DNA from: Methanothermococcus sp. Ax23
GTDB taxonomy: Archaea; AGJL01; Methanococci; Methanococcales; Methanococcaceae
DNA length: 64,000 nucleotides
Direction: 5' to 3'
NCBI RefSeq assembly: GCF_049075655.1
Contig: NZ_CP157522.1
Location: 1,120,001-1,184,000, forward strand
Below, in pieces: positions 4,930 to 27,219 of the stretch (position 1 is the first letter of the stretch; each line of letters opens with the position of its first letter). A model generated the notes under the pieces. That model was not told where the DNA came from. It did not search any database and saw nothing but the letters and a program-made list of their open reading frames with translations. A program made the position numbers and the translations under genes.

Positions 4930-5010
4930 ATTTATTGAATTTTAAATTATAAATTATTAAACTTATTTTTTTACGATAAACCGCCGAGAAAGCCAACGAT
5001 TTTAATCGTT

Positions 5011-5047
5011 ATACAAAACATAGTTTTGTAAAATCTCTTACGAGATT
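5011..5047. repeat. Double-hairpin insertion (37 bp) within the left-end hairpin
   Basis: TACAAAAC-ata-GTTTTGTA plus AATCTC-ttac-GAGATT; removal restores CCAACGATTTTAATCGTTGG. Confidence 0.7.
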
Positions 5048-5373
5048 GGATGAGAGGCGCACATCATTTTTTTTATATACTCCACTACATAATATATGAG
5101 TGTAATTAGAATAATAGCATATATATAAATTTGGTGAATTCCATGCAAGTAACCAGAGTGCTGACAATAAACCTAACCAGAAGTTTAAATAATGAACAAT
5201 TAATAATCATAAACCATTTAACCTATTCAGCATCAAAACTCTGGAATACATCCAACTACGAAGTAATACAGCGAAACATTAAACCAAATAAAATAGATGT
5301 TCAAATGAAGAACAACTTCTGGTTTAAAAACCTGCACTCACAGTCAGCACAGGCAGTATGTCAAAAACTTCAA

Positions 5374-5420
5374 ATTAGACGAAAACCTTCGGTTTTCGTT
5401 GCTCGCTTGCTACGCAAGCG
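5374..5420 (+). repeat. Double-hairpin micro-insertion, frameshifting tnpB (47 bp)
   Basis: ATTAGA-CGAAAACC ttc GGTTTTCG-TTGC-TCGCTTGC tac GCAAGCG(A). Confidence 0.88.
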
Positions 5421-5813
5421 ATTGCATGGCAAAACTACTTCAAACAACACACTAAAAGACCACGATACCAACCAAAAGATGGACACTTTCCCGTAAAATG
5501 GAAGAAGCAAGGTTTCAAAATCATAGGCAATAAGTTAAGATTATCCTTATCTAAACAAACTAAAAACTATCTCAAAGAGAAGCATGGTATCAAGTGCAGG
5601 TATCTATGGGTAGGGTTATCGAAAACTCTACCGCTTGATACCATGCAGGTTAAAGAAGTTGAGATAGTTCCGCAGACCATCTATGGGATAACCTACTACA
5701 TACTTCACTTAATCCATAAGAAACCAGTAATTCAAGAACCTATCAAAGAAGGTAATATATTAAGTATTGATTTAGGAATTAAGAATTTAGCAACAGCAAT
5801 AACAAACACAGGT

Positions 5814-5861
5814 ATCAGGCGAAAACCTTCGGTTTTCGCTACTCACCAACATCAGTTGGTG
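5814..5861 (+). repeat. Double-hairpin micro-insertion, in frame in tnpB (48 bp, IRRKPSVFATHQHQLV)
   Basis: ATCAG-GCGAAAACC ttc GGTTTTCGC-TAC-TCACCAAC atca GTTGGTG(A). Confidence 0.85.
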
Positions 5862-6550
5862 AAAGCAGTAATCTACGATGGAAGAAGGTTAATTTCTAAA
5901 TTCCGATGGTTTGCTAAAACAAAGGGGAAAATACAGTCTGCACTAACAAAACAGGAGTTAAAGAATAACAAAAGATTATCACACTTAACAGTAAAGGAGA
6001 AAAACTACACTAAGGATTATCTTCATAAGGTCAGTAAGATGATTGTTGATTTTGCAGTAGATAATAAAGTTTCAAGGATTGTAATCGGCGAGTTAAACAA
6101 AGGTATTTCAAATATTAATATTGGTAGAAAGAACAACGAGAAAATACACAAGATACCTTTTGGTAGGTTAGTAAGTATGATACAGTATAAAGCAGAGGAA
6201 AGGGGATTAACAGTAGAACAGGTTAATGAATCTTATACTTCTCAAACTTGTAGTAATTGTGGTGTGGTTAAAAAGAGTAATAGGAAGTATAGGGGTTTGT
6301 ATGTGTGTAGTGAGTGTGGTATGGTTTTGAATGCTGATATTAACGGGGCTTTGAATATTTTAAAAAAAGTATTTTCATGTAGCGTAGCCCTGAACCCGTT
6401 AATGGGTAGGGGTAGTGGGCTTGGCAACCCATGTAGGGTTAGACCCTGCTAAAGAACCCCACGATTTTAATCGTGGGAGTATGTCAGGTTATTAAAAATT
6501 TAAATAAAAATTTAGATAATTTATAACATGCTGAATTATCGGTGAAAAAA

Positions 6551-11822: not shown

Positions 11823-12540
11823 TATTATGGATAAACTACAAACTGTAAGAAAAATAGTCCAGTCGGCATTTTTTATAAAATTTGTAATCTTATCAGCCGT
11901 TCTTTCAAGCTTCTTCTGCCTGTGCATTTTTGGATATATTGAGCAATTCATATTGATGGGGAGTATTTATTTCGTTCCCGTTGTGGTTGTAATATCCTTG
12001 CTCACAATAATTTTTGGAAGAGTATTTTGCGGTTGGATGTGTCCATTGGGTTTTATTTTTGATTTAACATATAAGTTAAGAGTTAAGTTATCAGGGTTAA
12101 AAAAACTTCCAGAAGTTCCAAAAAACATCCACAATAAATTAAAATACTTAAAATATGTTATGTTGGTGTTATTCATTATATTAACATACCATTTTACAAC
12201 ATACGCCTATTGTTCAGTATGTCCTATCGGAGCTCTCACAAACTTATCTGGAACTCTAATTTCATTTGCCATTCTCGTCGGATTTATAGTATTGGGGTTC
12301 ATATATCCCATGGCATTTTGCAGATATTTCTGTCCAATAGGGGCATTACTTGGGCTACTTTCTATAAAACCCATATTTAAATTGAAATTAAATGATAAAT
12401 GTGTAAAATGTAGAATGTGCGAAAGAAAATGTCCAATGCAGATAGAGCTTACTGAAAAAATAGAACAGCATGAATGTATAAGATGCTTTGAATGTATAAG
12501 TTCATGTAGGAAAAAAGGAGTTGATTTTACCTTTAACTGA
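11806..12540 (+). CDS. Membrane 4Fe-4S binding protein (NapH/MauN-like)
   Basis: FCGWMCP, YCSVCP, FCRYFCP and two ferredoxin motifs; its stop codon is supplied by the inserted MITE. Confidence 0.88.
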   Translation: MNFLSDIMDKLQTVRKIVQSAFFIKFVILSAVLSSFFCLCIFGYIEQFILMGSIYFVPVVVVISLLTIIFGRVFCGWMCPLGFIFDLTYKLRVKLSGLKKLPEVPKNIHNKLKYLKYVMLVLFIILTYHFTTYAYCSVCPIGALTNLSGTLISFAILVGFIVLGFIYPMAFCRYFCPIGALLGLLSIKPIFKLKLNDKCVKCRMCERKCPMQIELTEKIEQHECIRCFECISSCRKKGVDFTFN

Positions 12541-12908
12541 CCTACTCCAACGAGTGAACTCGTTGGGTTCTCGCTTACGGTAGTAAGCGAGCAACGAAAT
12601 CACGAAGTGATTTCGTCTAATTTTAGTAGGGTTTAACCCTACACGGGTGGCCAAGCCCACTACCCCTACCCATTAATGGGTTCAGGGCTACGCTATGCAC
12701 TTCCAACCACTACCAGCGGTAGAGTTTTCACTAACCCCACCCATAGATACTTGGACTGGTAGCGTTACTTACTACTAATCTTCATATATTTATATTTTAC
12801 TACTTACTAGCCGATATAATGTCCGCCTCTCATCCAATCTCGTAAGAGATTTTACAAAACTATGTTTTGTATAACGACTGAAGTCGTTGGCTTTCCCGGC
12901 GGTTTATC
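12537..12908 (-). mobile_element. Non-autonomous IS605-derived element (372 bp, subfamily A)
   Basis: Same left end after TTTAC and same GTCAG right end as 4975-6487; no ORF. Confidence 0.92.
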
Positions 12909-15160: not shown

Positions 15161-15536
15161 CTGACCTACTCCAACGAGTGAACTCGTTGGGTTCTCGCTT
15201 ACGGTAGTAAGCGAGCAACGAAATCACGAAGTGATTTCGTCTAATTTTAGTAGGGTTTAACCCTACACGGGTGGCCAAGCCCACTACCCCTATCTCCGTT
15301 TAGGAGATTCAGGGCTACCTTTTGAATTTCCAAACACTACCAGCGGTAGAGTTTTCGATAACCCTACCCATAGATACTTGGACTGGTAGCGTTACTTACT
15401 ACTAATCTTCACATATTTATATTTTACTACTTACTAGCCGATATAATGTCCCGCCTCTCATCCAATCTCATAAGAGATTTTACAAAACTATGTTTTGTAT
15501 AACGATTAAAATCGTTGGCTTTCTCGGCGGTTTATC
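15161..15536 (-). mobile_element. Non-autonomous IS605-derived element (376 bp, subfamily B)
   Basis: Near-identical to 26844-27219; excision restores the host frame CAT|GTA AAT, which fixes the ends and the TTTAC target. Confidence 0.93.
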
Positions 15537-21676: not shown

Positions 21677-21772
21677 GTTGGATTTATTACAAACTTTTTA
21701 TTGCAGTTTTTACATGGTATTTTTGTATTACTACTCCATTTGAGGTTGTGTATTTCCCACATCACTTACTTT

Positions 21773-21857
21773 CTGACCTACTCCAACGGGTGAACTCGTT
21801 GGGTTCTCGCTTACGGTAGTAAGCGAGCAACGAAATCACGAAGTGATTTCGTCTAAT
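21773..21857 (-). mobile_element. 85-bp fragment: nested double hairpin plus IS605 right end
   Basis: Matches the MITE right end (1 substitution) and stops exactly at the ATTAGAC boundary of the nested hairpin element. Confidence 0.88.
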
Positions 21858-25015: not shown

Positions 25016-25104
25016 GGCGCGGGGTGCTGTGCCTGGTGGCACAGGGCGGACTTCAGATCCGTCAAGTTCGTTTGAACTCGGGGTTCGATTCCCCCCCAGC
25101 GCCG
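25016..25104 (+). tRNA. selC: tRNA-Sec (UCA anticodon)
   Basis: 9-bp acceptor stem (one G.A mismatch), long D stem, anticodon loop CTTCAGA, long variable arm, 4-bp T stem with TTCGATT, G discriminator, followed by a T-run; upstream TATAAATA. Confidence 0.93.
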
Positions 25105-26843: not shown

Positions 26844-27219
26844 GATAAACCGCCGAGAAAGCCAACGATTTTAATCGTTATACAAAACATAGTTTTGTAA
26901 AATCTCTTACGAGATTGGATGAGAGGCGGGACATTATATCGGCTAGTAAGTAGTAAAATATAAATATGTGAAGATTAGTAGTAAGTAACGCTACCAGTCC
27001 AAGTATCTATGGGTAGGGTTATCGAAAACTCTACCGCTGGTAGTGTTTGGAAATTCAAAAGGTAGCCCTGAATCTCCTAAACGGAGATAGGGGTAGTGGG
27101 CTTGGCCACCCGTGTAGGGTTAAACCCTACTAAAATTAGACGAAATCACTTCGTGATTTCGTTGCTCGCTTACTACCGTAAGCGAGAACCCAACGAGTTC
27201 ACTCGTTGGAGTAGGTCAG
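26844..27219 (+). mobile_element. Non-autonomous IS605-derived element (376 bp, subfamily B)
   Basis: TTTAC|GATAAACCGCC...GTAGGTCAG; internal TATA at 26955-26966. Confidence 0.93.

Follow-up and report, generated by a model that had tools for sequence, protein, structure and literature searches.

A hairpin module in the middle of a tnpB coding region of the archaeon Methanothermococcus sp. Ax23 (5583..5645, plus strand) is supported, by covariation and by synonymous-site constraint, as a stretch of coding sequence that is also a nucleic-acid structure under selection. The module is conserved by compensatory changes across heat-loving archaea and bacteria, and the short non-coding MITEs of the same insertion sequence (IS) keep it at a fixed place, directly before the right-end scaffold of the omegaRNA type. 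Positions are those of the window, i.e. the whole 64,000-nt stretch of DNA analysed (contig NZ_CP157522.1, positions 1,120,001 to 1,184,000 of the forward strand).

The IS occupies positions 4975..6487 (plus strand; 1.5 kb), with ends taken from an alignment of 10 genomic copies: the left end lies directly after TTAC (4971-4974), the right end closes with GTCAG, and metatranscriptome and DNA contigs part from the IS sequence beyond 6487. The left-end and right-end motifs each occur four times in the window. Subterminal hairpins with a common core are found at both ends, terminal inverted repeats are lacking, and the motif at the insertion point is fixed, with TTAC before and GTCAG at the end in 9 of 9 main-family copies; the element is a tnpB-only (IS1341-type) member of the IS200/IS605 family. 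Its tnpB (5144..6452, plus strand) is a pseudogene, broken by a frameshift into frames 5131-5496 and 5643-6452 (ORF list). The frameshift stems from a 47-nt double-hairpin mini-element at 5374..5420 (plus strand), missing from copies C1:431440 and C1:1300967, and a second such insert, in frame and with approximate limits (5813..5860, plus strand), is seen in 3 of the 10 genomic copies. In run X2 a contig has 5810-5864 swapped for 7 letters, and a contig omits exactly 5374-5420, as expected of IS copies without the insert. Splicing of the 47-nt insert (joint 5373>5421 in X2) was considered and set aside, as genomic copies without the insert account for the joint.

The source genome (1.67 Mb, 32% G+C, 98.9% complete) has an open tnpB frame (415-426 aa) in 3 of its 10 IS copies (an intact one lies at G000:C1:1301135-1302358), the remaining seven, window copy included, being split by the 47-nt mini-element. 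An intact sister copy matches PF01385 (OrfB_IS605, 77 bits) and PF07282 (Cas12f1-like TNB, 85 bits), and both domains are also carried by the 3' tnpB frame in the window (Pfam). No match to Y1 tnpA (PF01797) was found anywhere in this 98.9% complete genome; in a relative (genome G007) a Y1_Tnp gene (139 bits) overlaps the start of tnpB. This tnpB and its module are absent from 12 of 12 same-genus genomes examined. Since Y1 tnpA is missing, only three tnpB copies are intact and the congeners are without the family, the IS and its MITEs were probably gained laterally and are now immobile. More distant tnpB genes of the source genome (34-37% identity) have different ends and no module. In an unrelated tnpB family (37% identity; G000:C1:1424200-1426000, outside the window) the corresponding part of the coding region, between the RLSLG and IKEVRIIP motifs, holds a palindromic hairpin of 8 bp, which could be chance.

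The sequence-only reading had placed a perfect 12-bp stem enclosing a core at 5583..5645 in mid-tnpB, and coordinates and letters are as it gave them. The outer stem (5583-5594/5634-5645) consists of 12 perfect pairs and the inner hairpin (5610-5618/5625-5633) of 9 bp with a 6-nt loop; between them lie a one-sided 5' bulge of 13-14 nt (listed as 5595-5609) and a single unpaired G (listed at 5634-1). Covariance model R1 scores the module at 94.5 bits. The predicted folding energy is -28.4 kcal/mol (z -5.9) for the IS module, and -27.6 (z -5.3) and -25.8 kcal/mol (z -3.6) for two MITE modules. A 34-nt core, at up to 3 mismatches, occurs four times in the window (one IS and three MITEs) vs. zero expected from 100 shuffles. 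According to the AlphaFold2 model, the residues encoded by the module span a helix end, a beta strand at 142-146 and a surface loop at 147-157. No Rfam family matches the module at 5583-5645 or 26987-27047 with E up to 10. Kink-turn, bulge-helix-bulge, SECIS and ribozymes were discarded as its identity for want of Rfam matches, and the usual geometries of these motifs do not fit it. A small overlapping ORF starting at an AUG in the bulge was likewise rejected, the encoded peptides not being conserved.

Covariation was assessed in an alignment of 29 distinct archaeal modules, 15 from IS copies (source plus six other genomes) and 14 from MITEs of the source genome. Pairing is possible in 94.7% of the pair cells, vs. 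82% after shuffling and at most 49% with a slid partner, and RNAalifold independently recovers the same two helices. In a metagenome alignment (23 distinct rows, fitted to the R1 model) 97.9% of the cells pair. The outer stem of the MITEs differs from that of the IS by six pairs changed on both sides and by one G-C to G-U change, with pairing preserved. In the one divergent IS copy of the source genome (71% DNA identity) two pairs of the outer stem and three of the inner are compensated, and the encoded amino acids are altered. Among 945 cells in 45 distinct modules, G-U cells (62) far outnumber A-C cells (10), which indicates a structure of the sense strand, be it the RNA or the top strand in transposition.

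Synonymous constraint was evaluated in a codon alignment of 20 intact tnpB relatives. For the module window, the synonymous-codon identity comes to 0.685 vs. a gene mean of 0.482 (sd 0.057); of 418 windows six reach the level of the module, and all six overlap it. Several nucleotides are fixed at synonymous sites: the bulge Ser codon is TCC in 19/19, the codon before Trp is NTA in 20/20, and the codon of the unpaired G is NCG in 20/20. Fixation of unpaired nucleotides at such sites argues for specific recognition, beyond a merely stable hairpin. Synonymous-site constraint and covariation, by which the sequence-only reading had proposed to judge the segment, are thus both present, the module being the most constrained window and 11 of 21 pairs (archaeal alignment) and 17 of 21 (metagenome alignment) having changed on both sides.

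Model R1 was run over 40 genomes of the order Methanococcales and matched in 12 of them. TnpB relatives with 61-70% identity in six other genomes all have the module at the same place in the coding region. The same mid-CDS place was matched in 10 of the 32 genome-contig loci tested: two in Methanocaldococcus, five in Fervidobacterium thailandense (complete chromosome), one each in a Thermoanaerobacter MAG and a Synergistota MAG, and one binned as Persephonella, an assignment that rests on a short contig with untrustworthy binning. R1 matched none of the genome-contig loci at or below 41% TnpB identity, and at the three remaining negative loci (best segments 46-58%) the sequence is truncated upstream of the module. 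In TnpB relatives the module is found at this place down to ~50% identity; among metagenome loci R1 matches 21 of 39. Conservation in both domains makes a partner encoded by the element more likely than one encoded by the host. Bacterial deletion derivatives with the module number five (L205, L206, L207, L209 and L105/L181), and 2 of 7 bacterial deletion-derivative lineages are without it (L210, L223/L224). L205, L206, L207 and L209 are metagenome contigs and L105/L181 is from Fervidobacterium, all of the same tnpB clade. The deletion in L205 and L206 begins 33 nt past the module and stops ~45 nt short of the scaffold, a layout that recalls the archaeal MITE, yet the whole 5' third of the gene remains.

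The source genome has 38 modules, 10 in IS copies and 28 in MITEs of ~330-415 bp, which are non-coding and share both ends with the parent IS, as is expected of MITEs or PATEs. Three MITEs lie in the window, at 12537..12908 (minus strand; module 12705-12766, R1 88.4 bits), 15161..15536 (minus strand; module 15333-15393, 93.9 bits) and 26844..27219 (plus strand). The third comprises a left end, a TATA-like box (~26956-26966), the module (26987..27047, plus strand), a linker and a scaffold (27062-27219) that includes a 51-nt mini-element at 27134-27184. In each of the three the core is enclosed by a different stem, and the right-end scaffold starts 13 nt further on. That the MITEs keep the core ~740 nt out of its context and within another closing stem, as the sequence-only reading had stated, was borne out: the compensated arms of the third MITE lie at 26987-26997/27037-27047, and the scaffold begins 738-739 nt from the module in the window IS vs. 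13 nt in the MITE. BLAST of MITE against IS gives five matching pieces (left end, module core, scaffold, right-end tip and the separately inserted mini-element), and at that sensitivity the module is indeed the one internal piece of coding sequence that the MITEs retain. When the complete MITE RNA is folded, the module forms independently of the rest. An internal promoter ahead of the IS module was considered and rejected, as a crude test gave no TATA-like octamer at the position equivalent to that in the MITEs. Assembled contigs of vent metatranscriptome runs (X1, X2, X8 and X3) yielded no RNA 5' or 3' ends. Depth over the MITEs is high in these contigs but also in X3, which is probably DNA, so that it reflects copy number. 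A degenerate MITE of a sister subfamily, with a decayed outer stem, lies beside a tRNA-like sequence outside the window (G000:C1:514040-514260), and its variant left end recurs at loose contig ends in runs X2 and X3.

MITEs with a common layout occur in 9 of the 40 genomes of the order. Outside tnpB, R1 gave 19 matches in eight other genomes, and in all 16 loci that are readable the order is left end, TATA-like box, module, linker, scaffold and right end. The TATA-like box stands ~19 nt from the module: in 15 of 19 archaeal variants 17-22 nt separate the end of the TATA-like octamer from the outer stem, and in the other four the crude score chose another octamer, with a TATA-like run visible at the usual place. 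The usual archaeal spacing between TATA box and start would have transcription begin within the opening bases of the outer stem. The linker measures 11-13 nt in 15 of 17 archaeal MITE-type modules (30 and 43 nt in the other two), and an 18th MITE-type entry, a bacterial deletion derivative, has 80 nt. This linker length holds despite completely different stems between MITE families. The outer stems of MITEs in other genomes are wholly unlike those of the source-genome MITEs or of any IS, and are still paired; their inner stems have compensated changes too. Two types of scaffold are found in MITEs. The second was traced by a 16-nt pattern with 14 occurrences in 8 of 40 genomes, 13 in module-bearing MITEs and one at a contig edge, and none of these 14 occurrences has a tnpB beside it. 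The inner end of the stem, CCAG/CTGG, is common to all archaeal MITEs and is not seen in IS copies, from which it follows that the archaeal MITEs probably derive from one old MITE. Their layout therefore probably reflects long maintenance, with diversification under selection for the fold, and is in part inherited, as opposed to repeated independent retention.

The mini-element that interrupts this family is a 45-51-nt double hairpin that starts with A(A)TTAGAYGAAA; its first hairpin is conserved and its second is variable yet always paired. Copies in the window lie at 5374-5420, ~5813-5860, 27134-27184, ~12575-12625 and ~15200-15250, with a solo copy accompanied by a right-end fragment at ~21772-21857 and a related type at ~1825 and ~14599. 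It is scattered over the genome (132 strand-hits in a regex census, roughly 60 loci, many of them solo). In other genomes it is found in hairpin loops, namely the apical loop of the module, the first hairpin of the scaffold and the left end, and in one relative an in-frame copy at the module leaves TnpB intact but 15 residues longer. The mini-element appears to be a very small mobile element with hairpin loops as its target; a search of open-access papers and preprints returned no paper on it. The window also contains a tRNA-Sec gene (25016-25103, plus strand; Rfam RF01852, 64.5 bits).

The right-end scaffold of the IS (6384..6487, plus strand) has 104 nt, overlaps the 3' end of tnpB and has hairpins that covary in relatives; its subterminal hairpin lies 10 nt from the element end, as in omegaRNAs, and the flanking sequence after it would serve as guide. 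Against the Rfam family HgcC (RF00062) it gives a match over the whole model that is sub-threshold (24.6 bits with a gathering score of 50; E 0.004). The sequence-only reading had suggested that the family needs a second, distant RNA module, either as a tracrRNA-like split scaffold or as a translational or packaging element. One half of this stands, in that there is a selected nucleic-acid structure in the coding region, kept upstream of the scaffold in nine genomes; the tracrRNA-like half fares less well, the module being a closed hairpin with no anti-repeat and its bulge showing no universal pairing with the scaffold.

The latter point comes from a scan of all 4- and 5-nt registers of the bulge against an alignment of 63 scaffolds, in which no pairing universal to the 63 elements was found. 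The best registers were CUAU/GUAG (81%) and bulge CCAAG with the scaffold hairpin loop CUUGG (70%). The UUGG of that loop is nearly invariant and its stem covaries, which indicates that the loop is exposed and conserved. In the Thermoanaerobacter and Synergistota relatives (L101, L103) the combination is CCAAA/UUUGG, a double change from G-C to A-U that keeps the pair, and several further variants are compatible through wobble pairs. Pairing is broken in CCAAU/CUUGG, CCAAU/UUUGA, CCAAC or CCACU/UUUGG and, in many MITEs, CCACG; uncompensated changes occur in L195, L198, L200, L203 and L205 as well as in many MITEs. We regard the complementarity of bulge and scaffold loop as a lead towards a split scaffold, not as support for one. 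Two other pairing schemes were dropped: pairing of the bulge with the MITE linker (TTGGA) is found in the window MITEs and is absent from other genomes, and the heptamer GGTAGGG, common to module and scaffold and considered as a switch of alternative pairing, is not conserved in other families. For ISDra2 TnpB, the best-studied of these proteins, a contiguous 116-nt scaffold is reported to suffice for full activity, with a dispensable and disordered 5' region (PMC10097598). Processed omegaRNAs are reported to range from 79 to 466 nt, with TnpB trimming their 5' ends from longer precursors (PMC10278001).

A reading that may accommodate most of these observations, and which we prefer while holding it at somewhat less than even confidence, is that the module is an accessory cis-acting RNA domain of the guide-RNA transcript, recognised by TnpB. 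In a MITE it would be the 5'-terminal domain of a dedicated transcript, the unit running from promoter through module, short fixed linker and omegaRNA scaffold to a guide derived from the flank; in the IS the same domain would be part of the tnpB mRNA, ~670-740 nt upstream of the scaffold. TnpB, the only protein always encoded by these elements, would recognise the conserved one-sided bulge held between the two helices, and the module would make the transcript that bears it a better site for the TnpB-omegaRNA particle to load or assemble. With the IS, TnpB may bind its own mRNA in cis; with a MITE, the module may give an advantage in capturing TnpB produced elsewhere. That the recogniser is encoded by the element, and would be TnpB, is suggested by the fixed bulge, the conservation in both domains, the fixed place between promoter and scaffold in MITEs, and the unlikeness of the module, as read from the alignment, to the hairpins at the two ends, which would be the targets of a Y1 transposase.

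Several points count against recognition by TnpB. The 116-nt scaffold of ISDra2 is active alone, and the 104-nt scaffold described here looks complete without the module. Two of the seven bacterial deletion-derivative lineages are without it, the archaeal MITE layout is partly inherited from one ancestor, and the apical loop appears not to be essential, since mini-elements are tolerated there. We know of no precedent for a TnpB-binding element 700 nt upstream within the coding region.

In a bolder version, which we consider rather doubtful, this clade would use a bipartite guide-RNA scaffold, with the mid-CDS hairpin docking on TnpB or on the invariant UUGG loop in cis over 700 nt. The MITE would in that case amount to a naturally minimised form on a single transcript, i.e. 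a dedicated mobile omegaRNA gene with its own promoter, and the module would be required for, or strongly stimulate, RNA-guided cleavage by thermophilic TnpBs.

The module could instead be a stabiliser or processing signal that is not recognised by TnpB, placed right at the 5' terminus of MITE transcripts, where it would block 5'-to-3' decay or mark the site of trimming, and acting as an internal roadblock in the IS mRNA. In every MITE family the archaeal TATA distance rule predicts a start at the first bases of the outer stem, predicted folding energies of -26 to -31 kcal/mol make for a very stable hairpin, and the reported trimming of omegaRNA precursors by TnpB fits as well. We nevertheless judge this explanation unlikely, for a pure stabiliser needs neither fixed bulge nucleotides at synonymous sites nor a conserved position in the coding region 700 nt upstream of the scaffold in bacteria and archaea.

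A regulator of tnpB expression, i.e. a hairpin that slows or gates translation or controls mRNA decay, possibly via a bound factor, would account for the position in mid-CDS in every full-length relative and for the peak of synonymous constraint; for AmaTnpB, modulation of TnpB activity by an internal region of the mRNA is reported (PMC10278001). The MITE copies would then be decoys or a matter of inheritance, which leaves their compensatory upkeep in untranslated sequence, the fixed distances to promoter and scaffold and the occurrence in nine genomes unexplained, and makes the explanation quite improbable.

It is also conceivable that the hairpin acts in the top strand of single-stranded DNA, aiding excision or integration mediated by TnpA, so that non-autonomous copies must keep it. 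Elements of the IS200/IS605 family move in single-stranded form and use DNA hairpins, and MITEs have to retain all that mobility requires. The strand bias does not discriminate, as mRNA and top-strand DNA favour the same strand and an excess of G-T over A-C fits too; in DNA, however, persistent G-T pairs would make the hairpin weaker. The hairpins of the left and right end resemble each other and differ from the module, and a DNA signal does not predict a placement after a promoter and 11-13 nt before a scaffold. The characterised family members IS608 and ISDra2 are known to need only their ends. A role of this kind therefore has little probability in our estimate. That the module is a chance deletion remnant without function, MITEs arising via internal deletion and some bacterial deletion derivatives keeping or losing the region indifferently, is scarcely credible, being contradicted by the covariation, the synonymous constraint and the rebuilt closing stem maintained in non-coding copies.

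Cas12 descends from TnpB, itself a compact genome editor, whose guide RNA has hitherto been treated as one contiguous 3' piece. If recognition by TnpB holds, a second, selected RNA domain in the coding region would be a missing component of the making or loading of the guide RNA, and minimal units for expressing the guide RNA of thermostable TnpBs could be modelled on the natural MITE. The module itself is a clean case of a coding stretch under dual protein and RNA constraint.

Like the TnpB omegaRNA (reRNA) of ISDra2, the 104-nt right-end scaffold overlaps the 3' end of tnpB and has a subterminal hairpin ~10 nt from the boundary. In contrast to described omegaRNAs, which are contiguous, the present system has in its coding region, ~700 nt upstream, a further domain with covariation of its own, which the MITEs set directly before the scaffold; no description of a structured element in mid-CDS of tnpB, or of these Methanococcales MITEs, was found in open-access papers and preprints. 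HgcC has been linked to IS1341-type right ends (PMC4615843), and the scaffold resembles it over the whole model at a sub-threshold score, in a match that covers the scaffold alone and leaves the module unmatched. An internal region of the AmaTnpB mRNA, away from the omegaRNA, is reported to inhibit cleavage (PMC10278001). Both are stretches internal to tnpB mRNA; the AmaTnpB region affects TnpB activity, whereas such a role of the module is a proposal. Unlike the module, that region is proposed to unfold the scaffold by complementarity, and it is reported neither as a conserved hairpin nor as kept in MITEs. With the tracrRNA:crRNA pair and the Cas12f sgRNA there is a likeness in the idea of two separately encoded scaffold parts, of which the MITE would be the fused form; unlike tracrRNA and crRNA, the module is closed on itself, without anti-repeat, and its 4-5-nt complementarity of bulge and loop is lost in some lineages. 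PATEs that encode omegaRNAs have been reported (bioRxiv 10.1101/2023.03.14.532601), and PATE RNA is reported to be transcribed in Halobacterium (PMC4615843). Like the PATEs and MITEs of the IS200/IS605 family, as these are described in the two reports, the MITEs described here are gene-less, have both ends and carry a guide-RNA scaffold that TnpB could use in trans; unlike PATEs, which are described there as fused ends, they retain a structured piece from the middle of the coding region.
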